Positions 8,188 through 41,759 of a stretch of DNA of 43,825 nucleotides are shown here, in pieces. Position numbers and translations under genes: made by a program. The notes beneath the pieces are model-generated. The model did no database searches and was not told where the DNA came from. It saw only the letters and a program-made list of their open reading frames with translations. This stretch comes from an uncultured archaeon (GTDB taxonomy: Archaea > Thermoproteota > CALKCG01 > B24). The stretch covers positions 1-43,825 of the forward strand of contig CALKCG010000039.1 in assembly GCA_938082915.1 (NCBI GenBank), written 5' to 3'. Every line of letters starts with the position of its first letter. Position 1 is the stretch's first letter.

Positions 8188-8279
8188 AACTTTGATGATT
8201 CCCACTTTAACCTAACTAGATACGGGAATTACATTCTAAGAAAAAGGAGAAAATCTAGTACTACTTCAAATTTCATACG

Positions 8280-9371: not shown

Positions 9372-9436
9372 GAGTTACACCGCTATTATCAATGTGAGAA
9401 AAACTAATAAAATCTACTCTAGGTCTTAAAAAGAGT

Positions 9437-9456
9437 ATATGCTGAAAATAGCATAT
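9437..9456. promoter_or_regulatory. Inverted repeat in a divergent intergenic region (possible operator)
   Basis: ATATGCT-GAAAAT-AGCATAT (7-bp arms, 6-nt spacer) lies between the divergent genes 8280-9371(-) and 9505-11850(+). An A/T-rich TATA-like stretch AACTTTAAATAAT follows about 20-30 nt upstream of 9505. Confidence 0.3.
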
Positions 9457-9504
9457 TATGTATATAGGTAGAAAACTTTAAATAATCGATGTCTTCAACT
9501 CTTA

Positions 9505-17336: not shown

Positions 17337-18017
17337 TTACTTTTTTAATAACACTTTTGATGACGGAGGGGGGGAGGAGGGGCCTAATTTAGACTCCTCG
17401 CACTTCGACCCGAATTCGCAATACTTGCACTCCCAAGAGCGCTCAGGCTTCGGTGGGTTTTTTGAGGTGAGCGATTCATGCAGCGTTTTAGCGCGCTTCA
17501 AAATAGAATCCATGAGCTTACCGTCGAAGGGCACTTCGAATATTCGCCATGATAACCTGTGTTTCTCTAAGTATACTATCAAACCCCTTTGGTTGTTTAA
17601 AGCCAAGAGATACGGCTGAATCTGCATGACGTGGTGCTCCAATGATTTTCCTGGGAGTTTTGATATGCTCTTGACCTCCAAGACGACGTTCTCACCGTTT
17701 ACGCTTAAGACAGCGTCCACGCGCCCTGATATGCGTATCCACGATTCCCCGTGTTTCACGGCCAAAACTATGGGCTTTTCAAACTCGCAAGTCAAGGTCC
17801 CGTCAGACTTCAAAGCCCCGCTGAGAAAATCGTGTAAAAGCTCGCCTATCTTGAATACGCCGGACTTCTCAAGGCTCACGGCTATGCCCTCGCGGTATAT
17901 CCTGTACTGCCTTAGGAGGCGCGAGGGAAGTAGGCTTGGATAGTAAACGCCTATGGTAGGCTTTTCAAGATCGCGGGTCAAAGCCATCTTCAAGCACTCC
18001 TCGATTACTTTAAACAT
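17337..18017 (-). CDS. Cas4-family PD-(D/E)xK exonuclease with 4-Cys Fe-S cluster signature (not CRISPR-linked)
   Basis: GRVDAV...VLEVKS (D...E-x-K), QIQPYLLAL (QhxxY), one N-terminal Cys (EECLK) and C-terminal C-x2-C-x5-C (CKYCEFGSKC). This is the classic Cas4/RecB-like layout common in archaeal viruses and plasmids. Confidence 0.85.
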   Translation of the reverse strand: MFKVIEECLKMALTRDLEKPTIGVYYPSLLPSRLLRQYRIYREGIAVSLEKSGVFKIGELLHDFLSGALKSDGTLTCEFEKPIVLAVKHGESWIRISGRVDAVLSVNGENVVLEVKSISKLPGKSLEHHVMQIQPYLLALNNQRGLIVYLEKHRLSWRIFEVPFDGKLMDSILKRAKTLHESLTSKNPPKPERSWECKYCEFGSKCEESKLGPSSPPPSSKVLLKK

Positions 18018-18432: not shown

Positions 18433-20514
18433 CTAAAGCAGCGCCGACGATGATATGTCCATCAGTTTGATGTTCATTTTTTCGTTTCTTTTCTCAGGAG
18501 AAACGCTCAATTGCGTTATCTTACGCTCAGATTGTAATTCCTCGATTTTTCCCTCAAAAGAAGCTTGACCTTCGCTCCGATGAATACGCTCGTCAACCCC
18601 GGATTCTACAATATGAGTTTTCTCTTCATTCGAAGGCTTTCCTGGTTTGAAGTACTTCTCATAGAGCTGCTCCACAGTAAGCCTCTCCCCGGTGAAATCA
18701 TATATTATAAAATCTGGAGTCGGCGAGCGTATTCTTCTAAGCTCATCCCAGGCTTCTTTCAGAGTTTCAAGCCCAAAATTGAGGTCTGAGCGTAAAATAT
18801 CCTTTTTGATCGTTTTAAAATCAGTTAAAACCCTGTATATCTCCCTCCTCTTATCTTCCGGGTCTGGCTCTGATGTTATGAAGCCGGCGTTTTTTAAAGG
18901 CTTAAGGTAGTGTGTTCTAACCGTCACATCTGCAAGGGTCTTGCCGAGCTGTTTAGGCGTTGCGTCTACAAGCTCTCCAACTGTGAATGGTCCTCGAGAA
19001 TTCCAAACTGGTATGACGACCTTCTTGAAGAACTCTACCACGTTTCTAGAGAGCCCAGTCAAAATCGTCATTACGTCTTCTTCGCTGAAGAATAGCGGGT
19101 ATACTTCTTCAAAGTCTTCACGTGTGACGACTATGTACTCAGTGCCGTCTGCGAACACGAGCCTAGGCCTTGAGAAAACGTTTAAGGCCGCATGCGCCTG
19201 CAGTAGCGCTAGAAACCTGTCTACGTCACGCATCCTACGGCCAACATCCGCGGGGAACAGTTCGCCTATCTGCTTGTGATACGGTATCCAGAACATGGAG
19301 CCCTTTGGGTTTCCATGCGCCCTAACCTTACGCTTGACCTCTATAAGCCTATCTTTGACGGCTTCTAATGCCTCTCTAGCCCAATCCTCCTTATCGAGCT
19401 CTAGAATGGAGCTGAGTACTTGTATAGGCATGCCTCTCAGCATGGCTTTGAACTTTATGGCTGATCTATACTTCCTCTCACCCATGGATGGGCTTACAGT
19501 GGTAAACCTGCTCACGGTCTGCGTCCAATCGTCCTCGCTAGACTCACCCCTAGTGCGTATGAATATTGCGACTGGCCATCCGCGTAAGATGACGTGAACC
19601 GTTTTCAACGGGCCTCTAGCCTTGCGGTCTGTGAACTTGTAGTCCGCCTCGTAGACGTCGTGGCTCAGTATTGGATAGAGCTTCTTGAGCGTCTCAGGGT
19701 GTGGTCTATCCAAGAATATGAGTATCTTGTTCTCCAAGTCTACTAGGTATGCGGCTTTCGATGCGAGTTGCACGAGTTCTTGCCTAAGCCTCCTACGCTC
19801 ATCCCTGTCCTTAGTCTCCCTCAGCCTAGCTTGGACATCCAGTATCTTAGGCTCTAAAGGCTCCCTAGTCTCAGCGTCTACGAGTGCGCCGTGTTCGTGG
19901 GCTATGGCCGTAGGGCTAAGCCCCGCCAAATACCATATGTCGCCCTGAGGGAAGAGCCTAGCCACCTCCACGACTGGGTACGTCTTACCCTCGCTGGAAG
20001 GCGACTCTACGCCTAGGTTTGCAGGCTCAGTTATGTACGCGGTCACCATGTGTAGCGATGCCATCTTGACCATGTGGTCGTCTTCCTTGACCGTGCTACG
20101 CCTGATTTCGACGAGCCTATCGAACAGGTCCAAGCCCCTCAGCTCGCTTTCCATGTCGCTCTGCCCCCTCTGGATTGCGTTTACCAAATCGCCTTTGAAG
20201 TAGCTTACAACACCCATCCAAGCCGCGAATACGGATTTCGCACTCGCCTTAAGCTGCCCAGCTACCTCGCCAGTACTCAGGTTTAGGAGTTCGTCGAAGG
20301 CTAAAGGCTTTGACTTGAACCCATCCGTCTCGAAAAACCATAGACCGCCTTGCTTGACTACGCGGATGGAGGATTCGAAGTCTTCACAAGCATCGCATGC
20401 GGTATTCGACAGTAGGCATAGACCACCGTCGTAATGTACGCATTCGTCTCTAGCCCCTCCAGCTTTAAAGGAAAGGTTCAAACCCTTTAATTGAGGTGTA
20501 TTCTCTTGATTCAA
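18433..20514 (-). CDS. Large P-loop NTPase with N-terminal Cys cluster and C-terminal winged-helix domain (putative element replication helicase/initiator)
   Basis: 693 aa. Cys cluster CVHYDGGLCLLSNTACDAC, Walker-A-like SPSSEGKTY, Walker-B-like KILIFLDRPH. C-terminal wHTH-like FTVGELVDATPKQLGKTLADVTVRTHYLKPLKNAGFI. The architecture recalls plasmid/viral SF3-type Rep proteins; the function is inferred. Confidence 0.5.
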   Translation of the reverse strand: MNQENTPQLKGLNLSFKAGGARDECVHYDGGLCLLSNTACDACEDFESSIRVVKQGGLWFFETDGFKSKPLAFDELLNLSTGEVAGQLKASAKSVFAAWMGVVSYFKGDLVNAIQRGQSDMESELRGLDLFDRLVEIRRSTVKEDDHMVKMASLHMVTAYITEPANLGVESPSSEGKTYPVVEVARLFPQGDIWYLAGLSPTAIAHEHGALVDAETREPLEPKILDVQARLRETKDRDERRRLRQELVQLASKAAYLVDLENKILIFLDRPHPETLKKLYPILSHDVYEADYKFTDRKARGPLKTVHVILRGWPVAIFIRTRGESSEDDWTQTVSRFTTVSPSMGERKYRSAIKFKAMLRGMPIQVLSSILELDKEDWAREALEAVKDRLIEVKRKVRAHGNPKGSMFWIPYHKQIGELFPADVGRRMRDVDRFLALLQAHAALNVFSRPRLVFADGTEYIVVTREDFEEVYPLFFSEEDVMTILTGLSRNVVEFFKKVVIPVWNSRGPFTVGELVDATPKQLGKTLADVTVRTHYLKPLKNAGFITSEPDPEDKRREIYRVLTDFKTIKKDILRSDLNFGLETLKEAWDELRRIRSPTPDFIIYDFTGERLTVEQLYEKYFKPGKPSNEEKTHIVESGVDERIHRSEGQASFEGKIEELQSERKITQLSVSPEKRNEKMNIKLMDISSSALL

Positions 20515-23926: not shown

Positions 23927-24409
23927 TCACGTTTTTATGGCAGCAATTATCTCGCCTATGGCTTTGGACACTGCTTTCGCGCTATTGTGGGAGACCAACC
24001 TCTTCTCTTGTCGATCCCCGAGCTGCTCCGTCAAATCTAGTGCGAGTTCGACCATGCTCGTCAAGTAGCGCATAAGCGGCATCCCGCCGTGGAGCATTTT
24101 ATCGAGCACCTGTGCGTGAGTCAGGGGCTTCTGTTTTGCGTATACGGCCAGTAAGAACACGGTTAACGCTAGTCCAGCACTCCATGGGACTTTTACGAGG
24201 CTTCTACCGTTTTCCTTCTCAAGCGAATACTCGATTCTATTGATGTCTAGGGTTAAGAGTATATGCTTGTAGAGTTCGGACGCCCTCTTTCCTCCTAGCG
24301 TAATGTAGTATCGTGATTCTATGCTTGGAAATTTGACTCCCATCATGCACCTCTTAGGGTTCCTCGAGTGCTTGTATATCAGCCAGTATTCGCCCTCTGT
24401 CTTGACCAT
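23927..24409 (-). CDS. hypothetical protein (160 aa), last gene of the methyltransferase/ATPase operon
   Basis: ATG start 6 nt after the upstream stop. No motif recognised. Confidence 0.6.
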   Translation of the reverse strand: MVKTEGEYWLIYKHSRNPKRCMMGVKFPSIESRYYITLGGKRASELYKHILLTLDINRIEYSLEKENGRSLVKVPWSAGLALTVFLLAVYAKQKPLTHAQVLDKMLHGGMPLMRYLTSMVELALDLTEQLGDRQEKRLVSHNSAKAVSKAIGEIIAAIKT

Positions 24410-24415
24410 GAAGTC

Positions 24416-25243
24416 TCACCCCACTATCAGCATTGTTGAGAATGGGCTTAAACACGCTTTCTCCCCCGTGAACGCGTGGAGTAGGGAGCATCCATCTGGC
24501 TCTAGGGAGACGTCATATCCGTGGTCAGATAAAACTAGGACCGTGTAGTCTTCAGATAAGATGGCTATTTCAAACGCTATATCCTCAATAACTCTATGAA
24601 GGCTGACGGACATGTCGGACGTGCTCGGAAACTTTTCATACTGAGTTCTGTGGACCAGCTCATCAATGCCTCTCAGGACGGTATACCCCGCCGCCTTAAA
24701 CCTAGTTTTGAGAGCTTCTCCTACTGTGAACATAGTCATTTTTTCAAGTTGGGATTTGAGGATTATGGAAGTCAAATACTCGTATGTCTTAGTCGCACCA
24801 CCTGGATTTATCGAATACAGTAGCCCGTCTAAGTGAATAATTTTGGAGAACCTGTCGTAAAGGTATACGTATTCTGGAAGGGATAGGCAATCGCACAAGA
24901 CTACGTATGGTTTTTTCTTACGCGTCCTAAGGGCGGATTCGACTTTTTCAATAGCGTAGAGGATGCTCCCACCTGAAAGAATTAAGCCCTCCTTGGATAG
25001 TCTGTTCATAGAACCTATAAAGGCTTTACCTATTTCAACCGACTCCTCTAGTAGAGGATTGCGGGAAACTTGCTCGCAAAACTCTGGTCTACCGTAGGCT
25101 ACGCATAAACATGTAAAAAGCATATGCGCATATCTCTTTAACGATTCATCCCTCAGGGATAGTCTAATGGATTTGGAAAGCTTAAATGCATAGTCCCTAA
25201 GCAGGCTTAGGGAGGAGGACCACTCAACCCTCAACTCATCCAC
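24416..25243 (-). CDS. Miniature PglZ-like / alkaline-phosphatase-superfamily protein (275 aa)
   Basis: The ordered motifs YVVLCDCLSLPE (metal-ligand Asp region), NPGGATKTYEYL (nucleophile Ser/Thr region) and TVLVLSDHGYD (DHG motif) reproduce the PglZ/alkaline-phosphatase core layout. GTG start overlaps the ATPase stop by 8 nt. Confidence 0.55.
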   Translation of the reverse strand: MDELRVEWSSSLSLLRDYAFKLSKSIRLSLRDESLKRYAHMLFTCLCVAYGRPEFCEQVSRNPLLEESVEIGKAFIGSMNRLSKEGLILSGGSILYAIEKVESALRTRKKKPYVVLCDCLSLPEYVYLYDRFSKIIHLDGLLYSINPGGATKTYEYLTSIILKSQLEKMTMFTVGEALKTRFKAAGYTVLRGIDELVHRTQYEKFPSTSDMSVSLHRVIEDIAFEIAILSEDYTVLVLSDHGYDVSLEPDGCSLLHAFTGEKACLSPFSTMLIVG

Positions 25244-28200
25244 CAGACTTCTTCAGCTTGATCATGTTCTCATCTACCCCTATCCTTCTAAACTGTTCAA
25301 GTATTTTCTCCCTCTTCATCCTCTCCTCAAAGTACATAGTGAGAGAGACGTTCCTCAAGTCGCCCCCAAATTTCTCTAACATATTCTTGATGTTTAATAC
25401 TTCGACCACCCTTAAGGGTAGCTTCGACAAATCGACGCTTCCCCCTCTAATGTTTGCTGAGAAGTCTACGGCTTGGATACTGCTTAGATGGGGCTCTAAC
25501 TTACCTAAATGCATCACCGTTATGGTGACGTTATTAGTTCCATATACTTCAACTACGTTGTACTCCTCTGGAGGCGGGGGTGGAAGAGCTTTTACGCGCT
25601 CTACCACGATCTTTGCATCTTCTACAGATACTTTCACCTCATTTATCTCCGGGTCTGGTAGAGGATATATGCCACTTAGTATCTTCACAGCGCTCTCAAC
25701 AGCTGATTTAGATACTGGTTTTATCGGTATCTCAGGCCACCCCTTCACTATAGATTCAACCATGTACGTGGAGTCCATTTCAAGCCTCTTACCTGCTAGA
25801 AGGTCGTGTTTATGTTTCTCTGCGTATTTCTTCACGTACTCTATGAGGCTGGCTTTTATATCCGGGGTCTTCCGTATGTTGCATTTTCCACTTACGGCGT
25901 TTAAAATCCATGCCGGCAGCTCACCGTAAACCTCCTCAAACTTATTCGCAGACCTCTCAAGCGTCACTCTCAAATCCGCGTGTGTTATGGAGTCTATCAC
26001 AGGGTCGTAGTAGACGACTGTCTTGAAGAGGCTTATGAGATTCGCCGTATAGTTGCTTATGGCCGATGAAGTTAGGCCGGCTGCGTAGCTTTCGATCTTC
26101 TTGTGCATATGCTCCATTATCTCTAAAAGCACTTCCTCAAACTCCTGCTCGCTTTCATAGTACTCCTTGAGCGTAGGTATTGTTGGAGCCCTCTTTATCA
26201 TATTAATCCTCCTACGTCTGACCTGCTCTGGCTCGCCGACTTTTAAGTAATTTATGGCGGTGGAGGCCGCGTTGACTGATGCTATGTGATTGCAGATCCT
26301 AGAGAGGTCTTCGAGTGAGACGTCGGGGATCACCATGGCGAACATGTTTATGTACGGTATTTCGCTCCTATACTTCCGGATGATTGCTTCAGCTTCCTCA
26401 ACGTAATTTACCTTGGACTTTCCTAGTAGACTCGCCTCCAACACGCTCCAAGGAGATACCGTTAGTATCGTGAACGAGTCTCTGTCGAGGAGTTCTATAA
26501 ACTCAGGCTTACCTTTGAAACTGACCACGTGCTTCATCCAATCTATCAAGTAGAGCTTTGGAGGGGCTACTTTCCCAGACTTGCTTTGGAAGAAGCTCGT
26601 CAGTGGGTACTGATTGATCATATGGTCTTTAAAGTAGTTAAGCATGGCATTATAATCCCTCTTATCAACTCCAGCTTTCTCACGTTCTTCTTTGACCGTT
26701 TGCTCTATGAGCTCAGATGGATTTGGAAGAAGAGTGATTATGTAGTGTTCTAAACCGCCATATTCAAAGCTGTGTAAATATGGCAGCTTCTTAAACTCTT
26801 CGAAGGCTTCGTTAAACTTCTTGAGGCATTCCTCCGCCACAGCGCCTATGAGCGTTGTAGCAATGTCGAGTTTTGTAGCAGCTCTAAGCTTTACCTCAGC
26901 GCTCTCGATTTTAGACAGTACCTCGGGAGCTCTTATCATATCCAGCAGTTTAACTACGTTTTCAGTTATGGACTTAGCGTAAACCGTTGACGCCATGGCT
27001 AACATAAGCTCTCTAATGTCTTCGTCCTCAATCCTCTGAATAGTGCTCTCCCATAAATCGTAGATCCTCATCCACTCTCTTGCGATGCGTTCGCTCATAA
27101 CGTAACTGAAGTCTTCAGGTGCTAAACGGGTTATACTCATAAGCGTACACTCAGTCCACTTCGTGGACGTGAGCCTATTTATCAACGACGCCGTAATCTT
27201 CAGAAGGTCCCTTATATGCTGCGACCTCGGAAGGTCTGCCCCAAAAGTGGGATGTATAAACTTCTGTAGGAGGACTTCATAGCTTGGAGAAAACGGGTAG
27301 AATTTATCAAGCCTCCCCGTGAAATTGAGGACTTCATCTTTACCGATTAAACCCGCAAACTCTTCCTCTATATGTTTTTTAAGAGTTTGCACAGCATCCT
27401 GTTTTCTGGCTTTGAACCTTAATAGCCTCAGGGCTAGTATGTTTAGGGCGTCTTCAACCCCTAGTGGCTTTAAAGTTGATGGTTTAAGTCTCCCAACTCT
27501 ATCGTTCAACTCCCCAATGGCATCTACTAAGAGTGGTATGGTCTTATCGACTTCAGAATGAATGAGGTACTTTGATACCCTAGACCATCTTTCTACGTCC
27601 TGCTGAGCGGATGCATATATGAAGACCAGCGGTACTACTCCTCTAGAGTATTCTAAAAGCTCCTTGAGAAAAGATATGAGGTCCATTAGGCTTTTGATTC
27701 TTTCAATGGAGCCCCCATCGATTGTACTACGAACTCCTCCATAGAGTTCATCTACTACGACTAGTATTGGCGTAGGCTCTCTAAGACTTGAAATAAGGGT
27801 ATTAACGGCTTCTATAGGTCTGAGCTTACTAAGGCCCCTAAGGAAGCTCGGGTCTAAGACTTTAATTCCATGAACCTTAGACTTGTGCTCCAGTATTCTA
27901 GCTGCCACCTCGAATATCGCGTCGTAGGGCTTGAACTCCTTAGGGCATCTTAACATGTCTATCGCGAAGATCAACGTTCTCTCAGCCACTCTCCTATCGT
28001 AGTCGTATTTCCAGAGGGCGTTGGGGTCCAATACTTCTCTAATGTCATCAAAGTCCCAGCGGTATGTTTGAGCATAGAGGTGCCACAATAGTGTGAGGAA
28101 GTGGGTCTTTCCAAAACCCATCTCCTGGGTTAGAGACAGAGCGACTGGAGCTTCTCGAACGACTTTAAGCCCTCCGTTGACCATTTTTAAAGCATCAGCC

Positions 28201-28418
28201 ATCGGGTCGAAGTACGTTATCGATAGAAACGTAACGGTATCTAGGAATTCGTCGCTCACTACGACGCGCGGGTCAAACAGCTCGTGTTCAATTATCATGC
28301 CGAGGCTTGGCGCGAGTCTACCCACGTACTCACCTGGACTGAGCTTGCTATAGGCTTCCACAAGCTGAGTTGGTTCGACCACATCTTTCAACCTAGGAAT
28401 GTACATGTACAACTTCAC
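25236..28418 (-). CDS. Very large P-loop ATPase, DUF499 / BrxC-PglY-class (COG1483-like)
   Basis: 1060 aa. Walker A EMGFGKTHFLTLL near residue 100, Walker B ILVVVDELYGG. GTGA overlap with the methyltransferase stop. Family call rests on size, motif placement and the characteristic pairing with a DUF1156 methylase. Confidence 0.75.
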   Translation of the reverse strand: MKLYMYIPRLKDVVEPTQLVEAYSKLSPGEYVGRLAPSLGMIIEHELFDPRVVVSDEFLDTVTFLSITYFDPMADALKMVNGGLKVVREAPVALSLTQEMGFGKTHFLTLLWHLYAQTYRWDFDDIREVLDPNALWKYDYDRRVAERTLIFAIDMLRCPKEFKPYDAIFEVAARILEHKSKVHGIKVLDPSFLRGLSKLRPIEAVNTLISSLREPTPILVVVDELYGGVRSTIDGGSIERIKSLMDLISFLKELLEYSRGVVPLVFIYASAQQDVERWSRVSKYLIHSEVDKTIPLLVDAIGELNDRVGRLKPSTLKPLGVEDALNILALRLLRFKARKQDAVQTLKKHIEEEFAGLIGKDEVLNFTGRLDKFYPFSPSYEVLLQKFIHPTFGADLPRSQHIRDLLKITASLINRLTSTKWTECTLMSITRLAPEDFSYVMSERIAREWMRIYDLWESTIQRIEDEDIRELMLAMASTVYAKSITENVVKLLDMIRAPEVLSKIESAEVKLRAATKLDIATTLIGAVAEECLKKFNEAFEEFKKLPYLHSFEYGGLEHYIITLLPNPSELIEQTVKEEREKAGVDKRDYNAMLNYFKDHMINQYPLTSFFQSKSGKVAPPKLYLIDWMKHVVSFKGKPEFIELLDRDSFTILTVSPWSVLEASLLGKSKVNYVEEAEAIIRKYRSEIPYINMFAMVIPDVSLEDLSRICNHIASVNAASTAINYLKVGEPEQVRRRRINMIKRAPTIPTLKEYYESEQEFEEVLLEIMEHMHKKIESYAAGLTSSAISNYTANLISLFKTVVYYDPVIDSITHADLRVTLERSANKFEEVYGELPAWILNAVSGKCNIRKTPDIKASLIEYVKKYAEKHKHDLLAGKRLEMDSTYMVESIVKGWPEIPIKPVSKSAVESAVKILSGIYPLPDPEINEVKVSVEDAKIVVERVKALPPPPPEEYNVVEVYGTNNVTITVMHLGKLEPHLSSIQAVDFSANIRGGSVDLSKLPLRVVEVLNIKNMLEKFGGDLRNVSLTMYFEERMKREKILEQFRRIGVDENMIKLKKSGG

Positions 28419-31400
28419 CTCTCATACAGGAGTTTAAGCACGTTTTCTATAAAGGGTTTATTTAGCCTTGTAATGCCGAACGACTTCAACTCATCCTCTC
28501 TAGCGGTTAGCAGTAGGAATAGTGCAACAGCCACAACCTGTCTACTATATGGAAATAGCGTCCTTACTCGTTCCGCGGCTCTACTGACCTCTTCGACTGC
28601 TGGAATATCCGCTAAAATTTTCGTGAGCCTTAAAGCCATGCCTGAGGCGGTTTTATCCAGGACTTCGACTCTACGCTTGATGAGTTCCAGAGCCTCTCTA
28701 CCGTAAATTACTTTACGTGAGGAGCCGCCTTTAGCCTCTAGTAGCCCAAGGTTTTTAAGTCTGTCGAGGCTCGTACCGATGACCTTACAGATTTTTTCGC
28801 CGAAGTCATATTCAACGGTCGATTCCTCTGAGAACCTTGTGGACATCCATAGGAGTAAGTAGGCCTTCGAGTCGTTATCCACTAAGAGTATGTCGTTGAC
28901 CATGTTTTCAGCCAAAGCCTCTTCAACGCCGGCCTTCTTAAAGGCCTCTTTAAGAGCGCCCTCCAGAATCCTCGAAACACCATGGTATAAAGCCACCGGG
29001 TATAGGCTTTCCCTGAAGAACTGCAGTAACATAATAAACCTATATACGTCTCCAGCGCCCAAACCCTCCGCTTCGGTAAACTCATCTATAGGTCTAACAC
29101 CACGCTTAACAGATACTGCCTCAATCGACGGGTTCCATATTCTCGTGGCACCTGCTATCGCACCGGCTAAAGCCATTATGTACTTTTCGTATTCTGAAGC
29201 TCCAGATTCTATGGCGCTCTGAAGAGCATCCACCGTGCTTGACACGATAGCCCGTTTAACGTCTTCATTTATCGATAGGTCCCTAACGTCTCTAGTGCCG
29301 ACGACTACTCTCTCGCCCGCCTTTCTAGTCACGATCGCCAAACTTGAGAAGAACGCTGACCCTGCTAACGCAACACGTCTCTCAGCCATCTCCGTCCTTA
29401 TGGTCCAAACCTTCGTGACCATGAAGCCTGAAGCGTATAGAGCGCTTAGAATGCCCTCCCAAGCCTCTGGGTCGCTGTGAGTAAACCACACTATGAGGGC
29501 GCCGTCGTCTTTGAGGCTTTTATGGGCTTCTCGGAAGAACATCCACATGTTTTTCACGTACCAATCTCTACTATGCGTCGTCTTCATGCGTTCTAAAATC
29601 TCCAGAGCACTCCTCCCTTTGGCAGAGACTTTAACGGTCTTTCTCTCTATGATTTCACCATCCCTAGGCACGGTCGATAGTATGGGACTCCAACCCGAGA
29701 CGAAAAGCTCAGCTCTACTAGGCTCACCTCTATTGAACAAATAGCCTGCGTCTATAGCAGGAGACAAAGTGACTCTTAAGACCTGCCAGAAGAACTCGCT
29801 TATATCGCTGTAGGTGTGCTGGTCGAAATACGGAGGGTCTACATTAATAACATCGACGCTCTTCTCGCCCAATATCTTAGAAAGATCCACAGCGTCGGCC
29901 ATCAGAACCTTAACCCTATCGCCTAAGCCTCCGACCCAAGAGCACAAGTGCTTGAGCACGGGGCATATACCACCATGGGTCTTAGTAGGCTCTTCGACGT
30001 CAGGCTCAAAAACCCAGCCCAGTGATTTGTGAGGGTCTTCAACTATGGGAGGCATTTCACAGTATTCGAGACCAAGACCTATCTTTCTTGTTCTTGCATA
30101 GTGGTCCATAAGTTCTCTTATGGTTCTGGTAGTATCGTCCCATGTAGTTGTAATGTTATTAAAATTCATCAGTTTATCAATGCCAAAAGCTAAATAGAAA
30201 ATACCAGCTAATCTGAACTCCGCTTTTTCATCAATTGATTCTTTAATCCTTGCTCTGACGTATTTTACCAGCTTCATCAAAATTAAAAGCTGCCTCGGAT
30301 TGAATAGCTCATACCAGTAATCTATCCCCAGGTCTGTCACAGGCTTGAATACTTCGTTCTCGGCTTTGTATATTGGGTCTGATGGTATGTAGTCTTTGAG
30401 CTCTTCGCTCAGCCTAGTTAGGTCTAGGTATGCCTCGGTAAACCTCTCCACGTCTTCCTTCGCTGCTGCCTTAAACCCCCTCTTAGTCTGCTTGACGAGT
30501 AGGATGTGTGTCCGATTGAGCTCTTCAACAGATTCTTTGGCTGATTTGAAGTCCCCGCTCAAAGCGGTCTTCAAGAGCCTCTTATGCCTTGAAACCCAGT
30601 CTCGAAGGGCAACTTCCTCTACTACTGGAGCCTTGCAGTACGGGCACCTAAGCCTGGTAAACTCTGCCTCCACTTCGGAGATATCCACCGCGAAGCTCTT
30701 CTTCTCCCCATCGAAGCTGAACTTTATATACGGTCCATTCTTCCCAAGTCTCGTAGTATGTATTATCGGAATCAAGCCTCCGCAGGATTTACACATATAC
30801 CCTCTGGCGATTATATAGTTCATAGCATCCTCAGGATAGTACTTCCCAAGTTCCTTCCTAGCCCAACCTATGAGCCTCTCAGCCTCAGCCTTAACCTCCT
30901 CGTAAAGCCTCACACCATATTTGGCAGGGTACTCAAGCGTGGCCTTGAGGATCAAGTAGGCGACGGGGTTGTACTCCATAGCAACCGTCCTAAAGCCAAG
31001 CCTCAAAGCCTCCAAAGGAATAGAGCCACCACCAGCCATAGGGTCTACGATGAGTATTTCACTAGAATTCTTGCCTATTTTTTCCTTCAAGACGTCATCT
31101 AGATGCCTTCTTTTAGGATTTGAATTAAGGAGTATTGGCAGAATTTTTTGTGTGGCTAAGTCAGATATATCATTAAAACCAACAATTTCTCTAAAGAGGT
31201 CTTTACTGAAATTATGGGGAAGAATAGCAGCTAGATTGAGTATTCTTGAAAGTGCCATCGGGCGCCTCGCAAACCAAGGATGGAGATTATTTGGCTGCGG
31301 GGTTCCTACGTTAAGCACCGTTGGATCTACACTATACAGACTTAAAAATTGAGGCCTGTACTTGTTCCTCGAAATTCTGAATGAAATCTCAATGGCTGCG

Positions 31401-31456
31401 TGGAGATTCATTTCTGATAGAGGAAGCCATTCTTCAACAAGCCTTCTAAAAGACAT
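28415..31456 (-). CDS. DUF1156-type Zn-ribbon-containing DNA methyltransferase (COG1743-like; N6-adenine/N4-cytosine class)
   Basis: 1013 aa. DUF1156 signature NLHPWFARRPMALSRIL, SAM motif I IVDPMAGGGSIPLEALRLG, ribbon CKSCGG...CPYCKAPV, catalytic motif IV VINVDPPYFD. GGAGG lies 8 nt upstream of the ATG. Confidence 0.9.
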   Translation of the reverse strand: MSFRRLVEEWLPLSEMNLHAAIEISFRISRNKYRPQFLSLYSVDPTVLNVGTPQPNNLHPWFARRPMALSRILNLAAILPHNFSKDLFREIVGFNDISDLATQKILPILLNSNPKRRHLDDVLKEKIGKNSSEILIVDPMAGGGSIPLEALRLGFRTVAMEYNPVAYLILKATLEYPAKYGVRLYEEVKAEAERLIGWARKELGKYYPEDAMNYIIARGYMCKSCGGLIPIIHTTRLGKNGPYIKFSFDGEKKSFAVDISEVEAEFTRLRCPYCKAPVVEEVALRDWVSRHKRLLKTALSGDFKSAKESVEELNRTHILLVKQTKRGFKAAAKEDVERFTEAYLDLTRLSEELKDYIPSDPIYKAENEVFKPVTDLGIDYWYELFNPRQLLILMKLVKYVRARIKESIDEKAEFRLAGIFYLAFGIDKLMNFNNITTTWDDTTRTIRELMDHYARTRKIGLGLEYCEMPPIVEDPHKSLGWVFEPDVEEPTKTHGGICPVLKHLCSWVGGLGDRVKVLMADAVDLSKILGEKSVDVINVDPPYFDQHTYSDISEFFWQVLRVTLSPAIDAGYLFNRGEPSRAELFVSGWSPILSTVPRDGEIIERKTVKVSAKGRSALEILERMKTTHSRDWYVKNMWMFFREAHKSLKDDGALIVWFTHSDPEAWEGILSALYASGFMVTKVWTIRTEMAERRVALAGSAFFSSLAIVTRKAGERVVVGTRDVRDLSINEDVKRAIVSSTVDALQSAIESGASEYEKYIMALAGAIAGATRIWNPSIEAVSVKRGVRPIDEFTEAEGLGAGDVYRFIMLLQFFRESLYPVALYHGVSRILEGALKEAFKKAGVEEALAENMVNDILLVDNDSKAYLLLWMSTRFSEESTVEYDFGEKICKVIGTSLDRLKNLGLLEAKGGSSRKVIYGREALELIKRRVEVLDKTASGMALRLTKILADIPAVEEVSRAAERVRTLFPYSRQVVAVALFLLLTAREDELKSFGITRLNKPFIENVLKLLYER

Positions 31457-31515
31457 TCTAATGCCTCCACGTCTTAAGAGACTCGACCTTAAACTTCCAG
31501 CTGTAGAGGGAATAC

Positions 31516-32262
31516 TTAACCATGAGCTTCACCTTCCATGCACTTTGGACATATATGCATTATCGGGCATATGTCGCACTCCGGCTTCTCCCTGCAGTAG
31601 TAGAAGCCTATGTGCCACAGTCCAGCGTCCAGTGCCATAGGTGGCACCTTAAACTTCATCCTGACGACCTTATCGGCTTCCTCTAGTGTTGCATCCTTTG
31701 GTATGATGTGCGTCCTTTCTAAAACTCTCATGACTGGGTCTGCTGGCGATAGGTTTACGTTCTTAATATCGAGCTTAATTATATCGGCTAATCTGAGTTC
31801 TCTGACTATCCCCGGTGCCAAGACCGGTCCTATGCCGGGTAGCTTACTGAGGTCGTTTTCTAGAATCTTAGCATCCGTGAATTTGGCGAAATATTTGACT
31901 AGGCTTCCTCCATTATTTACGGCTATACTCACCAACTCTCTGAAGAACCTTAAAAGCCCTGCAAACCCTCCATGGGGATTAAACCTTGGTATAGTCCTAG
32001 CCACGCCTACTACGGCTTCTTCCACTCTACTGATCCCGTGTTTTTGATTTATTTCAAGTAGACGCTCAAGGGAGATCATCCTCGCAAACTCGTCTAAAGC
32101 GTGCTCGGGGGTTCCAGTAGGCCATTGATAGGTTCTCCAACAGATTTGGAATGCTGCCTCTTCTGAGCCTAACCTGTCTACCATGTCTAAGAGCTCCATC
32201 CTATACTCATCAGTCTTCATCAAGCAGAACCTTGTGAGCTCGTCTATTAAGGCCTGGCTCAT
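31516..32262 (-). CDS. Endonuclease-III-like helix-hairpin-helix protein with C-terminal Fe-S cluster loop (putative DNA glycosylase/lyase-like)
   Basis: HhH motif LSKLPGIGPVLAPGIV, followed by SPADPVMRVLERTHII (position of the EndoIII VDTH-x-x-RV segment). C-terminal C-x5-C-x2-C-x5-C (CREKPECDICPIMHIC) compares with EndoIII C-x6-C-x2-C-x5-C. ATGA overlap with the upstream wHTH gene. Confidence 0.65.
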   Translation of the reverse strand: MSQALIDELTRFCLMKTDEYRMELLDMVDRLGSEEAAFQICWRTYQWPTGTPEHALDEFARMISLERLLEINQKHGISRVEEAVVGVARTIPRFNPHGGFAGLLRFFRELVSIAVNNGGSLVKYFAKFTDAKILENDLSKLPGIGPVLAPGIVRELRLADIIKLDIKNVNLSPADPVMRVLERTHIIPKDATLEEADKVVRMKFKVPPMALDAGLWHIGFYYCREKPECDICPIMHICPKCMEGEAHG

Positions 32263-32453
32263 ACCTCCTCCCTCCAGAACAAGTGTATTTTACTAGAGCC
32301 CTTGTACCGTACGCCCTTCTTCGTCATGGCTAGGTGCATCAACGCATCCTTAGCGGTCTTGTAGTTTATCCCAAGCCTCTTGGCGACCTCGTTCGGCGTG
32401 GCTGGTTCATCCGTAAGCACGTTGTAAACGGCTTCTTCGTACTTACTTGGCAC
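32259..32453 (-). CDS. Small winged-helix DNA-binding protein (64 aa), first gene of the operon
   Basis: TPNEVAKRLGINYKTAKDALMHLAMTKKGVRYKG is an HTH plus wing. GTG start. Confidence 0.6.
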   Translation of the reverse strand: MPSKYEEAVYNVLTDEPATPNEVAKRLGINYKTAKDALMHLAMTKKGVRYKGSSKIHLFWREEV

Positions 32454-33045: not shown

Positions 33046-33375
33046 TTAAAATAGTTCTCCATACTTGCTCACGTGGTCTTCTACTGCCTTCTCCTGGTTG
33101 TCTATAGAGCCGTCCCATTCGTCTAACTCCTTTTCCATCTTTGACCAATGTGCATAAATGTCTTCAGCTACTTCCTCCCCTTCGATCTTTAGTACCGCAT
33201 CACCTTTCCCTTCTTTCCGCGCTTGTCGGATGTTATGAAGGGGTCTATATATACGTACTCTAACCCCATGCTCTTCCAAGGTAGTCTGTCTAGGAACCCT
33301 CCAGTTCTCAAGAGTGGTTTGACCCCTTAATCTATTAAAACTGGACACGTTTTCACCTCCCAATAATATGGCCAC
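33046..33375 (-). CDS. hypothetical protein (109 aa)
   Basis: ORF only. Its 5' end overlaps the start of the divergent 33368 ORF, so one of the two starts is wrong or this ORF is spurious. Confidence 0.3.
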   Translation of the reverse strand: MAILLGGENVSSFNRLRGQTTLENWRVPRQTTLEEHGVRVRIYRPLHNIRQARKEGKGDAVLKIEGEEVAEDIYAHWSKMEKELDEWDGSIDNQEKAVEDHVSKYGELF

Positions 33376-34009
33376 AGACAGAGAAATCGTTAAAAGAGGA
33401 AAAACTTATCTCATTTGTCTCACTTATCTTAATAACGTGATGTTGGAAAGTGAAAGTAGAGCTTTTAGGGAGTGTATTAAGATGGCTAAGATGCTTTATG
33501 AATTGGATGGTTTATACGATGACCTCCTTAAATCTGCGTCAAATGAGCCCGCTGAGTTCGAAAGAAAGCTTTTGGACTTTATATCGCTCGTAAATAGGGT
33601 TAAGAAGAAGATCGAGTTGTTCAGTATGGTTTATAGCGTAGGTCCAATCATTGACATCGCATCTGATCCCAGCGATGAGAGGAATGCATTAGTTAAGGTC
33701 GGCTTGAAAATGAGGCGTTATAAATATGAAAGTAAACCGATTAAAGTCCGCCAATTCATAGTCGCAGAAATCTTGCCATTAACTGAGGCGCACTTGAAAT
33801 CAGAAGATGTTATAAAGGCGGCCGTCAGTAGAGCTTCTAAACGTGAGCTTATATCACCAGGTGAAGCAGCTAGATCGCTCAATGTCTCATATAAAACTCT
33901 CTGGAGGTGGTGGAAGGAGGGGAAGATCAAAGCCGTTAGATTGCCTTCAGGGCGATTAAGATATTACAGGCATGAGGTTGAAAAATTGATGAAAAACGCC
34001 GTCGGCTGA
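33368..34009 (+). CDS. Protein with C-terminal excisionase/MerR-type HTH domain
   Basis: C-terminus ISPGEAARSLNVSYKTLWRWWKEGKIKAVRLPSGRLRYYRHEVEKL is an excisionase-family HTH. N-terminal ~160 aa unknown. Internal ATGs (for example residue 25) are alternative starts. Confidence 0.6.
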   Translation: MATDREIVKRGKTYLICLTYLNNVMLESESRAFRECIKMAKMLYELDGLYDDLLKSASNEPAEFERKLLDFISLVNRVKKKIELFSMVYSVGPIIDIASDPSDERNALVKVGLKMRRYKYESKPIKVRQFIVAEILPLTEAHLKSEDVIKAAVSRASKRELISPGEAARSLNVSYKTLWRWWKEGKIKAVRLPSGRLRYYRHEVEKLMKNAVG

Positions 34010-34224: not shown

Positions 34225-36546
34225 TCACGTACCCAATTTTAACATCCACCTCTCCACTCCATTTCTCTTTTCAACCTCCACTCCTCTGCTCCGCCTTTTT
34301 AATAGCTCTTTAAGCTCTTGCTTGAAAAGTTCGTCGGGCATGAAAATCCTGATAGCTCTTTCATACATTACCATCGATTTATCGCCATGCTTTTTCCACT
34401 TTTTCACTGGAGAGGATGACGTACATTTGAGACCCCTTTTCTCCGCCAGTTTACGTATTTCGCTACTGAGCTCATCAAGCCTTTTATAACACTTGCGCCG
34501 CTTGGCACCGGTACTGATGACTACTATTTGAAGCTCTGGTGGCTTCAAAGTAGTAGGAGTGGAACGTTGGCGGATTAATCGCCATTCTTTTAAGGGTTCT
34601 TCCACCTCCAGTCCTTCTTTATACGCGAAGACTCCTCCTCTTTCTTTAACGTAGGATAGAAACTCGGACAGTAGACCCTCAGAGCATCGATTAATAGAAT
34701 TGGAATTTCCCACAACTATGAGCTTGCATCTAGCCCTCGTAAAGGCGACGTTGAGCCTGTTAGGGTCTTCGACAAAGGATAGGCTTGAAGTGGCGGTGAC
34801 ACTAAATATTATGACATCCTTCTCCCTACCTTGGAAGGCATCTACAGTATTTACTTCTATTTCGTCGTCCTCTAAAGATTCCCTTAACTTACGCATCTGA
34901 GACTTAAATGGTGTAATAACACCTATCTGAGCACTATGAATACCGAGACTTTTCAATGCAAAGACCACTCTCTCGATGGCCTCAACTTCTAGTGGATTAT
35001 ACTTGGACCTCCCCTCGACTACTTCAGACCCCTCCACCTCTAGGAACACGACAGGCCTCTCGGGGTTTAGAAATTCTAAATCGGCTGGAGGCCGTCTTTT
35101 CAAACTGAGCTTTATGCCTCTGCACGCCTCAACGGGAGTTATCTTCCCTTCGTAGATGTACCTTTGTGAGAACCCTATGATATCGCTGTTACTCCTATAG
35201 TGCCATCTGAGCCACAGAGCTCTATTTCCATAGGTATCCAGCATATGGCAAAAAGCGCTCAGCTCTTTCTGAACATCTTCTTTTTCGGTCTTAAAAATCG
35301 GTAGTAATTGCTTATGATCTCCTATGAGGACCCACTTGTTAGCCTTAATCATTCCAAGCAGGGCTAATATTATGGATGCTTGACTGCACTCATCTATTAA
35401 AGCTACGTCAAACCTCTCATTCGCCAGAGGATATAGCTGAGACTTTATTAGCGTAGACCCGATGATATTAGCGGCTTTTACAAGCCTCTCGCTTTCAGCT
35501 CTAAGCATTCTGTTCCTTTCTTCAAATAGCATCCTAAGCTCTTGCCTCAGACTAACGCCCTTATCCCTGATGCTAGAATACTTATCTTTAAACCCAACTT
35601 CATACCATTCTCTCCTGAGCTCGTAGAGCCCTTTAATGTTCCTCCTCAATGCATCTATTTTGTTCTCCAATTCTTCAAGTTTAGCTCCAAGTGCCGTCCT
35701 CCTAGCCTTATAGCTTAAAAGATAGGGTCTTACGTTTTTCAGAACTTTCTCAGGTCTACCGACCCTAAGGGACTCTTCAACTGGTAAGATTTCGATGGCG
35801 TTGTCCACTGCCCTATTCGTGTGAGAGGCTATCAGAACCCTTTCACCCCTTTTAGAGAGCTCGTAGGCAGCCTTGGCTATGACCCTGGTCTTGCCAGTAC
35901 CGGGAGGCCCTATGATCAAAAGGAGTTCACTGTCATTTAGACCTAAAATATGTTCAATCGCGTCTACTTGAGAGCTGTCAAGTTGAAACTTTCCGCTCAA
36001 GTCCATTCTATCGTTGAGAGTTACTCTGCGAGGTAGGGGCATATCTACGGCATTTAGCATTACTTGAACAGCCTTCATCTCCACCTGGTCGAGCTCTCCA
36101 GTCACTATCCTGTCTATAAGCTCTAGCTGTAAGTCGTAACCAACGAGGACTTCAGCTTCGCATAGCTCTATAGACTCACCCTCCTTCAAGTCCGTAGGTT
36201 TAAACAGCCCTATGGTGGATACGGTACCACTAGCTATGACGGTTCCGAGGGGCTCTATTCCTTTTAATGGGCTTAGGCGACCTACAACGTCGCCTTCTTC
36301 AAACCTAGGAAAGCTGCATTCGATTGTAACAGCTTCATCTTCTACATCGAGGACCTCGCCTTTAACACGTTCCGTAATTGCCCTCTTCTTTTCCTCGTTT
36401 CTCTCATTTAAGAGAAGTCTTTTCATGAATTTTAAAAGCTCATTTAAGTCATCGAACAGAGTGCTCTTACCGCACTTCCAACACTTGATGGAGTCAGGTG
36501 TGATTCTCATTCCACATCTGGGGCAAAACTTCAACGATCCCTTCAC
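34225..36546 (-). CDS. Superfamily-1 helicase of the Upf1/Dna2-like (AAA_11/AAA_12) type with N-terminal zinc ribbon
   Basis: 773 aa. CPRCG...CWKCG ribbon, Walker A IIGPPGTGKTR, Walker B DVALIDECSQ, LIGDHKQLLP (motif III), long coiled-coil insertion, VNTVDAFQGREKDVIIFS and NVAFTRAR (motifs V/VI). Confidence 0.9.
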   Translation of the reverse strand: MKGSLKFCPRCGMRITPDSIKCWKCGKSTLFDDLNELLKFMKRLLLNERNEEKKRAITERVKGEVLDVEDEAVTIECSFPRFEEGDVVGRLSPLKGIEPLGTVIASGTVSTIGLFKPTDLKEGESIELCEAEVLVGYDLQLELIDRIVTGELDQVEMKAVQVMLNAVDMPLPRRVTLNDRMDLSGKFQLDSSQVDAIEHILGLNDSELLLIIGPPGTGKTRVIAKAAYELSKRGERVLIASHTNRAVDNAIEILPVEESLRVGRPEKVLKNVRPYLLSYKARRTALGAKLEELENKIDALRRNIKGLYELRREWYEVGFKDKYSSIRDKGVSLRQELRMLFEERNRMLRAESERLVKAANIIGSTLIKSQLYPLANERFDVALIDECSQASIILALLGMIKANKWVLIGDHKQLLPIFKTEKEDVQKELSAFCHMLDTYGNRALWLRWHYRSNSDIIGFSQRYIYEGKITPVEACRGIKLSLKRRPPADLEFLNPERPVVFLEVEGSEVVEGRSKYNPLEVEAIERVVFALKSLGIHSAQIGVITPFKSQMRKLRESLEDDEIEVNTVDAFQGREKDVIIFSVTATSSLSFVEDPNRLNVAFTRARCKLIVVGNSNSINRCSEGLLSEFLSYVKERGGVFAYKEGLEVEEPLKEWRLIRQRSTPTTLKPPELQIVVISTGAKRRKCYKRLDELSSEIRKLAEKRGLKCTSSSPVKKWKKHGDKSMVMYERAIRIFMPDELFKQELKELLKRRSRGVEVEKRNGVERWMLKLGT

Positions 36547-37142
36547 CTGTTGGAGGGTAAATCCAAGATTTTAGTATACTTGTCCAGTCTCCTAACAGCC
36601 CATACGAAGTCCCTCATCTTTGAGATGAATTCTCCCTTTAACCTATCTAGTTCAACCTCTCTATCAGCAGGATGCAATTTACTCGACGTTATAACTTCTT
36701 CTATCCTATGGGCTATCGAGTGTATCTCCTCGTCTAATCTCTGAAGCCCTTCCCTCAAAGAGGGTGGTATTGCTTCAATCTGTTTGACTATAAGTTTTTG
36801 TAAAACTTGCATAGCCTCTTCTTCTTTAAGACGAAACCTTTTCTCTCTTAGAAAGGAGAGCTCTTCAGACGCTTTCGTAATCACGCCTATGACATTCCAA
36901 TTAACTCTTACTTGGGCTGGAAAACGCCCACCCCAAGCCTCGGGCTCGACATTATATCCCCCATCACAACTGGCGGTAAACGGTCCGAAAAGCACATCCG
37001 TTTCAATGTTGTATAGAAAGAGAGTATCACCCTTTTTAACTTCCTTTACGGATTCCCACATTCTCTCAGTATCTCCGAAGAGCCTCCTCTGAAAGCACTC
37101 GGCCTCTGTTTCCTTTTTGCAGATAAACTTCCAGTACATCAT
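36543..37142 (-). CDS. DCD-domain (PUA/EVE-like superfamily) protein with C-terminal coiled coil
   Basis: YWKFICKKETEAECFQRRLFG ... KKGDTLFLYNIETDVLFGPFTASCDGGYNVEPEAWGGRFPAQVRV reproduces the DCD signature blocks (FG, LFLYN, G-x-F-x-A, FPAQVR). ATGA-type 4-nt overlap with the helicase start. GGAGG upstream. Confidence 0.8.
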   Translation of the reverse strand: MMYWKFICKKETEAECFQRRLFGDTERMWESVKEVKKGDTLFLYNIETDVLFGPFTASCDGGYNVEPEAWGGRFPAQVRVNWNVIGVITKASEELSFLREKRFRLKEEEAMQVLQKLIVKQIEAIPPSLREGLQRLDEEIHSIAHRIEEVITSSKLHPADREVELDRLKGEFISKMRDFVWAVRRLDKYTKILDLPSNR

Positions 37143-38975: not shown

Positions 38976-39161
38976 TTGATGTCAGAAGTCTCAGAGAAGC
39001 TATTGACAACGGGTGAAGTAGCCAGAAGGCTTCAAGTCAGCATAAAAACGGTTCAGAGGTGGGTTAAAGAGGGGAGGCTCAGAGCGATAAAGTATCCAAG
39101 TGGTCGTTTCAAAGTCCCCGAGAGCGAGGTTGAGAAAATATGGGAGTCGTTAAGGCAGTAG
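38976..39161 (+). CDS. Excisionase/MerR-type HTH protein (61 aa), resembling the N-terminal DNA-binding domain of IS607-type TnpA without a recombinase domain
   Basis: LLTTGEVARRLQVSIKTVQRWVKEGRLRAIKYPSGRFKVPESEVEKI. Its end overlaps the tnpB start by 22 nt. Confidence 0.7.
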   Translation: MMSEVSEKLLTTGEVARRLQVSIKTVQRWVKEGRLRAIKYPSGRFKVPESEVEKIWESLRQ

Positions 39162-41381: not shown

Positions 41382-41759
41382 TCATTATCTGAACTCAAAA
41401 TTAGATTTGTATGTTACCTTATCAAAAGTTGATCTATCCATGTCCGTTATGTGATAAGGAAACTTTAGAAGTGATCTATAGACTGAGCTACAAGGCTGCG
41501 AAGAAGAGTCGGAATGCAATTGTCGGAAGCAAAACTACTTGGAGGCGCATGAGTGAAGGAATTGTATAAATTGCTGAAGAACGTAGGAGAATTGGAAGCT
41601 AAAATAAAGCTATCGTGAAAGGATACTGACAATCTATGGACGGTTTTCATCGGTAGATAAAGCTTTTAACGTTACATGTAAGATTTAGAGTTTGAAAGAT
41701 GTATAAAGTGAACGGTTGGATTTCAGGCTTGTAGAGGGGTCTCTGAAAAAGCTTGGGAG

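Follow-up and report, generated by a model that had tools for sequence, protein, structure and literature searches.

What kind of system is encoded by the run of co-directional genes at positions 23927-32453 of contig CALKCG010000039.1, from an uncultured archaeon of the Thermoproteota? The contig, 43,825 nt long and analysed over its whole length, is called the window here. A sequence-only reading had described the stretch as a compact six-gene operon related to the bacteriophage exclusion (BREX) systems, encoding a winged-helix protein, a helix-hairpin-helix (HhH) protein, a DUF1156 methyltransferase, a DUF499 ATPase, a miniature PglZ and one further protein, in an architecture that matched nothing catalogued. 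The core of that idea stood, namely a compact BREX-like unit of DUF1156-type methyltransferase, DUF499-like ATPase, mini-PglZ and an unassigned protein; its six-gene boundary and its wholly undescribed architecture did not. The conserved unit consists of four genes (methyltransferase, ATPase, mini-PglZ and 160-amino-acid protein), not six. The best explanation, held with a probability of about 0.6, is that they form a helicase-less cassette of archaea from hot environments, a stripped-down relative of the Type-3 BREX-related (BR) antiviral systems.

The boundary of the unit was established by comparison with 92 related loci (12 from genomes and 80 from metagenomes; L numbers below), which were fetched by pattern scans with an alignment of the ATPase. 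Iterative hidden Markov model (HMM) searches of all open reading frames (ORFs) in these loci found the genes for the methyltransferase, the ATPase, the 275-amino-acid (aa) PglZ-like protein and the 160-aa protein in identical order and on the same strand throughout. All four were present together in every locus where the contig permits (66/66), and each of the 26 incomplete loci is interrupted by a contig end. The 160-aa gene was matched by 75 ORFs directly 3' of the PglZ-like gene, that is, in every locus whose contig continues. No homologue of the winged-helix or the HhH protein was found in the 92 loci, and at the nucleotide level the window is homologous to its relatives over essentially 23931-31477 only, the similarity ending within ~20 nt 5' of the methyltransferase start. 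The co-occurrence with the methyltransferase-ATPase pair that a six-gene system implies was thus seen for the 275-aa and 160-aa proteins and not for the 248-aa HhH protein. No conserved flanking gene family was detected, the largest being present in 8 of the 92 loci.

The cassette is confined to thermophilic, hot-environment TACK archaea. Relatives of the ATPase number 46 among 5.8 billion clustered proteins, and all those carrying a source name come from Thermoproteota/TACK metagenome-assembled genomes. Cassette-bearing genomes (12 of 185,579 species representatives) belong to Bathyarchaeia, Ca. Methanodesulfokora (Korarchaeia), Desulfurococcales, Pyrodictiaceae and Nitrososphaerota. The lowest identity to the window protein across the family is 48% for the methyltransferase, 28% for the ATPase, 18% for the PglZ-like protein and 21% for the 160-aa protein, which argues that the partners of the methyltransferase evolve much faster than the enzyme itself.

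All six ORFs were confirmed on the minus strand at the positions originally described, and judged by their sequences they are real genes rather than chance ORFs, since four of them have dozens of homologues and conserved catalytic residues. The four junctions quoted for the locus were also correct: a 4-nt overlap between the winged-helix and HhH genes (ATGA, 32259-32262), a 4-nt overlap between the methyltransferase and ATPase genes (GTGA, 28415-28418), an 8-nt overlap between the ATPase and 275-aa genes (25236-25243) and a 6-nt gap between the 275-aa and 160-aa genes (24410-24415). The GTGA overlap exists only if the GTG start of the ATPase is used. Both the deposited annotation and the alignment of homologues place the start at Met5 (ATG 28406), which gives a protein of 1056 aa (P0001) and replaces the overlap by an 8-nt gap. 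The deposited product of the 275-aa gene has 272 aa. The claim of a single translationally coupled unit failed at the fifth junction, where the HhH stop at 31516 and the methyltransferase ATG at 31456 lie 59 nt apart and the spacer includes a separate GGAGG, 7-11 nt 5' of the ATG. The locus is therefore divided into two coupled blocks, winged-helix-HhH and methyltransferase-ATPase-275-160. AT-rich, TATA-like elements were seen by eye 10-30 nt 5' of the winged-helix GTG; a scan for sigma-70 promoters and terminators was disregarded because the host is archaeal.

The methyltransferase is the most readily classified of the four core proteins. It matched the PADLOC models MTase_II (2e-47), HmaB (5e-32) and DUF1156_MTase (2e-22), and reached 24.5 bits with Pfam DUF1156 against a cut-off of 24, in agreement with its original assignment. 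The NCBIfam model DUF1156_antiphage gave a partial match (7.7e-33; 114 bits against a cut-off of 1000), and the PADLOC PglX|PglXI model matched a 58-aa segment only (1.6e-6). An N-terminal DUF1156 helix region is followed by the S-adenosylmethionine motif DPMAGGG (138-144), a target-recognition insert with a four-Cys Zn ribbon (C222, C225, C271 and C274) and finally by DPPY (540-543), the catalytic motif. Across 58 full-length family members, both motifs and all four Cys show 100% conservation. All motifs originally quoted for the locus are present in the translations: NLHPWFARRPMALSR, IVDPMAGGGS, CxxC...CxxC and NVDPPYFD in the methyltransferase, GFGKTH and VVVDELY in the ATPase, and the D/T/DHG layout in the 275-aa protein. 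In L001, the closest genome relative (Bathyarchaeia), two separate ORFs (6972-9161 and 9168-9998) make up the methyltransferase, reflecting either a frameshift or pseudogene or an assembly error.

Direct HMM, PDB-sequence and PHROG searches with the ATPase, the 275-aa protein and the 160-aa protein returned nothing usable, and the window ATPase had no direct match in Pfam, PADLOC, NCBIfam or PDB. Its assignment comes through its family. P0028 and P0043, both of which carry PF04465, align with 98-99% of the window protein at 30-35% identity (E = 1e-165 and 6e-134). When 24 family members were scanned singly, 12 matched HmaC (best 2e-11), six PADLOC DUF499 and two Pfam DUF499; the PADLOC BrxC model matched one (0.003). 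The window ATPase therefore probably belongs to a divergent DUF499/HmaC branch, and the original DUF499 label holds in that form. Walker A (GFGKTH, 101-106) and Walker B (DE, 223-224) are in place, with G101, G103, K104, T105, D223 and E224 invariant in the alignment of homologues. Alignment with BrxC of pEFER by hhalign, a comparison with single BREX proteins that is too insensitive to decide homology, covered Walker B through the YPFSP/YPFxP motif at a probability of 19%. A conserved poly-Pro linker is found at residues ~940-950 (window ~25560-25600), with PPPPP here and PPPPPPP in the family consensus. It precedes a C-terminal domain of ~110 aa, which may be the counterpart of the RRM/ferredoxin-like domain reported for DUF499 ATPases.

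The 275-aa protein had been named a mini-PglZ from its D/T/DHG layout, and structure prediction and conservation both argue for this identity. Its AlphaFold2 (AF2) model (pLDDT 86.9, pTM 0.88) consists of five helices bundled at the N terminus (2-106) and a compact alpha/beta core of the alkaline-phosphatase fold (110-275; ~165 aa, seven strands). In a Foldseek search of PDB, ranks 1-18 were all PglZ domains of PorX or of Acinetobacter BREX, at E = 3e-6 to 8e-3 (PorX 3e-6 with probability 1.0; BREX PglZ 9zn5_B 4e-4), and MCR-1, iPGM, AP and NPP followed. The residues predicted as metal ligands and nucleophile are D118, T151 (T153), D194, H198, D240, H241 and H256. Among 35 locus-derived and 39 remote members, which reach down to ~18% identity, D118, T151, D194, D240, H241 and H256 never vary and H198 is kept in at least 90%, a set that is, by sequence, the one expected of a two-metal site with a Thr nucleophile. 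Pfam PglZ was matched below threshold by three of the locus-derived and four of the remote members; Pfam matches to the alkaline-phosphatase clan were likewise sub-threshold only, and a 58%-identical UniRef homologue is named 'PglZ domain-containing protein'. The family is small: among 1.84 billion proteins it amounts to 74 clusters (50% identity), nearly all of them standalone proteins of 220-290 aa. Alignment with pEFER PglZ (hhalign) was limited to the DHG motif (probability 20%), and a scan of viral contigs with the PglZ-like alignment gave no match. The protein is thus predicted to be a real miniature PglZ-like enzyme; the small size of the modelled core suggests that the three-stranded, cap-like beta-sheet insert of PglZ is reduced or absent.

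The 160-aa protein resembles nothing in the collections searched. Its AF2 model (pLDDT 82.5) has a predicted beta3-alpha-beta2 order followed by four helices, and Foldseek returned nothing below E = 0.1 in PDB, nothing below 3e-3 in BFVD and no match to any P-loop or BrxB chain. Neither this protein nor 27 family members matched Pfam, PADLOC, NCBIfam or PHROG; the family likewise matched neither DUF1819 nor DUF1788, and hhalign with BrxA and BrxB of pEFER gave probabilities of 0.05% and 0.5%. Only G40, P75, G79 and G108 never vary, and none of them is enzyme-like. Several candidate identities were rejected. A match of the family profile to cystatin-8 (7e-5) covers a hydrophobic stretch and was judged spurious. 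A BrxA-like identity was discarded for lack of any similarity, and identity with the inactive STAND (iSTAND) proteins of BR systems was discarded because there is no similarity and the order of strands and helices (beta-beta-beta-alpha-beta-beta-alpha4) is not P-loop-like.

The region upstream of the methyltransferase is a different matter. In the HhH protein, an LPGIGP hairpin is accompanied by the Cys cluster C223-X5-C229-X2-C232-X5-C238. Glycosylases of the HhH-GPD, EndoIII/MutY type carry an HhH, a catalytic Asp ~20 residues downstream and a Cys-X6-Cys-X2-Cys-X5-Cys loop that binds [4Fe-4S]. A weak alignment makes the C-terminal half of the window protein EndoIII/MutY-like, and all matches were below cut-off (NCBIfam mutY 0.0022; Pfam EndIII_4Fe-2S 0.033; PDB MutY 0.009, residues 136-246). 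The candidate catalytic Asp, D175, falls one position off D144 in the MutY alignment, and there is no Lys at the position of EndoIII K120. No homologue was found in viral contigs. The winged-helix protein matched PF0610-like_N (9e-5) and TrmB (1.8e-4) in Pfam, both below cut-off. An EVE-domain gene stands directly upstream of the methyltransferase in five relatives (L001, L013, L014, L026 and L082), including the three closest known (L001, L013 and L014, ~81% nucleotide identity to the window), and other clades have other genes in the slot. The EVE gene of L001 (6441-6965; Pfam 2.4e-10) is on the methyltransferase strand, 6 nt ahead of that gene. As the winged-helix and HhH genes are unique to the window and EVE occupies their slot in close relatives, they are swappable accessories outside the core. 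The slot is variable and tends to hold readers of DNA bases or modifications. HhH/Fe-S glycosylases such as Mig.Mth accompany methylases in thermophiles and repair deaminated methylated bases, so the HhH protein could be a repair partner rather than a component of defence.

Two further observations concern this slot. A hydrophobic protein of ~270-310 aa is encoded ~110 nt upstream of the methyltransferase in eight loci (L050, L057, L059, L061, L062, L065, L069 and L076). Positions 41554-41725 of the window are 75-78% identical, in inverted orientation, to 6402-6540 of L001 and 2915-3090 of L014, where the counterpart lies just upstream of the EVE gene and overlaps its start. The window segment contains no intact EVE ORF and matched no Rfam family; it may be a remnant or shared island-border sequence.

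Among described systems, the closest to the cassette is Type-3 BR, a DUF499-centred group reported in January 2026, in which an ATPase, a methyltransferase and a Swi2/Snf2 helicase are combined with a standalone active PglZ (Rakesh and Krishnan, NAR 2026; PMC12839542). It was recorded in 569 taxa, 134 of them archaeal, with an iSTAND protein in 82% of taxa and none in 18%; the iSTAND proteins are fast-evolving, and PglZ was argued to be the effector (PMC12839542). This combination of DUF499, DUF1156 methyltransferase and standalone PglZ has overtaken the earlier statement that no catalogued architecture fits the locus. The cassette shares with Type-3 BR the DUF499-type AAA+ ATPase (here at family level only), the DUF1156-type N6-methyltransferase with its N-terminal helical domain and Zn-finger insert for target recognition, and a separate PglZ with intact metal-coordinating residues and a (here predicted) alpha/beta/alpha core of the NPP type. 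Archaeal occurrence and the lack of a dedicated PD-(D/E)XK or HKD nuclease are also common to both. The cassette differs in several respects. Its fourth gene encodes the 160-aa protein without known fold and no recognizable iSTAND NTPase; its ATPase and PglZ are too divergent for the Pfam, PADLOC and NCBIfam models; its PglZ core, behind a helical bundle, has only ~165 aa; and its family is limited to thermophilic Thermoproteota/TACK lineages. WP_125672496, Methanodesulfokora, Bathyarchaeia and others were not found in the supplements of PMC12839542, the neighbourhood file of which was covered in part. A tblastn search of the PLSDB plasmids with a DUF499-positive family member gave no match, hence no annotated Type-3 BR example for comparison.

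The most conspicuous difference is the helicase. No Swi2/Snf2 (BrxHII-like) helicase is present in the window, whose sole helicase belongs to superfamily 1 (SF1; AAA_11/AAA_12), lies 1.8 kb away and is paired with a DCD-domain gene. Of the related loci, 17 extend 3 kb or more beyond the cassette on the upstream side and 20 on the downstream side, and L026 alone among them has a Swi2/Snf2 helicase; a phmmer search with that protein detected no further copy, either in the window or in the remaining 91 loci. The L026 gene (14578-17688, minus strand, 1036 aa) is convergent with the cassette and lies 29 nt beyond the point where the 160-aa gene stops. Near the C terminus of its product, 'RRVTFSPEVASREGIELVTFGSS' is similar to the motif of BR helicases given in the supplement of PMC12839542, which suggests that the cassette family is tied to the BR lineage and that most members have lost the helicase. 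The earlier observation that PglX, BrxA, BrxB, BrxL and a helicase form no part of the unit was borne out.

Other relatives are more distant. MANTIS (Gao_RL, Type-2 BR) also has four genes, among them those for a DUF499 ATPase, a DUF1156-type methyltransferase and a small accessory protein, and experiments showed that both the ATPase (MtsA) and the small co-regulator are required for methylation, loading and activating the methyltransferase (Shaw et al., bioRxiv 10.64898/2026.09.23.753747). However, its effector is MtsD, an HKD nuclease fused to a helicase of superfamily 2 (SF2), in place of mini-PglZ, and its small protein is DUF3780 (printed DUF3870 in the preprint), which the 160-aa family does not match. 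Hma (Type-1 BR; PADLOC; Payne et al., 2021; PMC8565338) supplies the best PADLOC matches, HmaB for the methyltransferase and HmaC for half of the ATPase family. Its HmaA, a Snf2 helicase fused to a PD-(D/E)XK nuclease and the demonstrated antiphage effector of Halomonas Hma (PMC11232893), is absent from the window and the conserved neighbourhood, whereas PglZ and the 160-aa protein are extra here. Canonical BREX, especially type 3, shares the logic of a methylase, a large P-loop ATPase and PglZ. Type 3 BREX is said to comprise BrxF, BrxC, PglXI, BrxHII, PglZ and BrxA (Goldfarb et al., 2015). Likeness to canonical BREX extends to the methyltransferase segment that matches PglXI, the ATPase stretch from Walker B to YPFxP that aligns with BrxC and the PglZ fold of 9zn5_B. 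In contrast, PglZ has 275 aa here rather than ~800-900 aa in several domains, BrxA, BrxB/BrxF, BrxL and BrxHII are missing, and no PADLOC BREX model was significant on window proteins. Set against all of these, the cassette is new as a four-gene variant that lacks a helicase and has a very small PglZ and a novel fourth protein.

By analogy with these systems, a working scheme can be proposed. The DUF1156-type methyltransferase would N6-methylate adenines in a short host motif. The DUF499 AAA+ ATPase would serve as DNA-loading scaffold and switch, activating the methyltransferase and licensing restriction as demonstrated for MtsA in MANTIS and BrxC in BREX. The 160-aa protein would couple the effector, the methyltransferase or both to the ATPase, in the manner of MtsB/DUF3780 in Type-2 BR or BrxB/iSTAND in BREX. 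Mini-PglZ would be the effector, a metal-dependent nuclease or phosphodiesterase that acts on invader DNA lacking methylation, without the help of a translocating helicase. The slot upstream of the methyltransferase would stand outside this core, holding a winged-helix and an HhH/Fe-S glycosylase-like protein here and an EVE reader of modified bases in close relatives.

One alternative is that the cassette is a plain member of Type-3 BR and only another lineage of it, with a helicase, and perhaps an iSTAND protein, encoded elsewhere or recently lost and with the 160-aa protein as an eroded iSTAND. The overlapping parts list (DUF499, DUF1156 methyltransferase, standalone active PglZ), the archaeal taxa and the iSTAND-free members of Type-3 BR, the fast evolution of iSTAND proteins (PMC12839542) and the BR-like helicase adjoining the cassette in L026 are all in keeping with it. 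This alternative is nevertheless considered unlikely, given that L026 is alone among the well-flanked loci in carrying a Snf2 helicase, that the model of the 160-aa protein, with three strands first and four helices last, is not an alpha/beta/alpha P-loop fold and found no P-loop or BrxB chain, and that the names sought in the supplements, with the neighbourhood file covered in part, did not appear there. Several points weigh against the preferred four-gene reading itself. A helicase elsewhere in the genome is possible, the window being a 43.8-kb contig. The window ATPase and PglZ-like protein are under every curated HMM threshold, hhalign with BrxC and PglZ of type-1 BREX reached only ~20% probability, and the Foldseek matches to PglZ combine good E-values with low TM-scores (0.3-0.4). 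The 160-aa protein owes its role purely to analogy, the effector chemistry of the 275-aa protein (nuclease or phosphodiesterase) is ambiguous since PglZ domains such as that of PorX also act on oligonucleotides, and a defence function is deduced from homology and context only.

The six-gene operon of the sequence-only reading, with winged-helix and HhH/Fe-S proteins integral to a new BREX-like subtype, has become improbable. Its genes are indeed co-directional and tightly packed, with the ATGA overlap on one side of the HhH gene and only 59 nt on the other, and the EVE gene 6 nt upstream of the methyltransferase in relatives points to a functional link between slot and cassette. Nevertheless, the two accessories have homologues in 0 of 92 loci, the ~81% DNA homology with L001, L013 and L014 reaches the methyltransferase start at most and not the HhH and winged-helix genes, and the glycosylase assignment is sub-threshold with its catalytic Asp misplaced. 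About as improbable is an interpretation without restriction, in which an ATPase-dependent epigenetic or element-maintenance module would be accompanied by a PglZ-like enzyme acting on nucleotides or signalling oligonucleotides. In its favour stands PorX, the source of the top structural matches, whose PglZ is a phosphodiesterase on oligonucleotides (PMC12839542); the carriage of the cassette on an integrase-bearing island and its lack of a canonical nuclease or helicase also agree. On the other hand, the homologous systems studied so far (BREX, Hma and MANTIS) are all defence systems, the three partners diverge much faster than the methyltransferase, a pattern that suits arms-race proteins, and the neighbours are often other defence genes (McrBC-like, EVE and DCD). 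The four-gene cassette related to Type-3 BR is thus preferred.

The surroundings of this cassette in the window are listed with it in Table 1. The first 15.7 kb hold housekeeping genes. From the integrase at 15728 on, GC rises from ~0.37-0.45 to 0.44-0.52, with the shift at 16 kb. The integrase, the excisionase-like HTH protein, the rise in GC and the other defence-type genes indicate that an integrated element or defence island carries the cassette as cargo; searches for tRNAs, Rfam families and att-like direct repeats that would mark the island borders gave none. The DCD gene overlaps the start of the SF1 helicase gene, and the two look like a separate two-gene module of defence type. Homologues of both occur in other loci, those of DCD near the cassette (L002, L018 and L019) and those of the helicase upstream of it (L073 and L079). 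L062 (10284-13516) and L069 (10123-13355) encode, downstream of the cassette, a McrBC-like pair made up of a 613-aa AAA_5 protein and a partner of 464 aa.

Table 1. Features of the cassette and of the island that carries it (window positions)
Feature	Position	Strand	Remarks
N6-adenine DNA methyltransferase, 1013 aa, DUF1156/HmaB/MtsC type	28415-31456	-	core gene 1
AAA+ ATPase (ORC/Cdc6-clade, BrxC-like), probable divergent DUF499/HmaC branch, 1060 aa (probably 1056)	25236-28418	-	core gene 2
Standalone mini-PglZ-like metallo-phosphodiesterase/nuclease (predicted), 275 aa	24416-25243	-	core gene 3, presumed effector
160-aa protein, no known fold	23927-24409	-	core gene 4, presumed adaptor/co-regulator
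HhH protein with C-terminal Cys cluster, 248 aa	31516-32262	-	window-specific accessory
Winged-helix (TrmB/PF0610-N-like) DNA-binding protein, 64 aa	32259-32453	-	window-specific accessory, possible regulator
Tyrosine integrase	15728-16978		
Cas4-like PD-(D/E)XK nuclease	17337-18017		
693-aa ORF within island	18433-20514	-	no Pfam or PHROG match
Excisionase-like HTH_17 protein	33368-34009		phrog_66, 1.4e-10
SF1 helicase with N-terminal zinc ribbon	34225-36546	-	AAA_11/AAA_12
DCD (Development and Cell Death, PUA-like) domain gene	36543-37142	-	Pfam, 1.2e-23
TnpB/Cas12f-like gene	39140-40309	+	OrfB_IS605 and Cas12f1-like TNB domain, 1.1e-18

PADLOC 2.0, Pfam and NCBIfam miss three of the four core genes, and such systems are therefore under-counted in archaea. 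How BREX-type systems arrest an invader is unsettled, and PglZ as the actual effector is debated. The cassette keeps the methyltransferase, the BrxC-like ATPase, the catalytic core of PglZ and one small protein, and dispenses with helicase, BrxL and accessory nuclease. If it protects alone, it would be the smallest natural test bed for the model of PglZ as effector, and its thermostable proteins would suit structural work. A bolder proposal, tentative and held as somewhat doubtful, is that the four genes are a minimal, helicase-free, PglZ-based immune system exclusive to thermophilic TACK archaea, self-sufficient in self-marking and restriction, with a 160-aa adaptor of new fold and a swappable slot for readers of modified bases. 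Were this so, restriction across the entire BREX/BR superfamily would come down to an irreducible core of PglZ and the BrxC-like ATPase.

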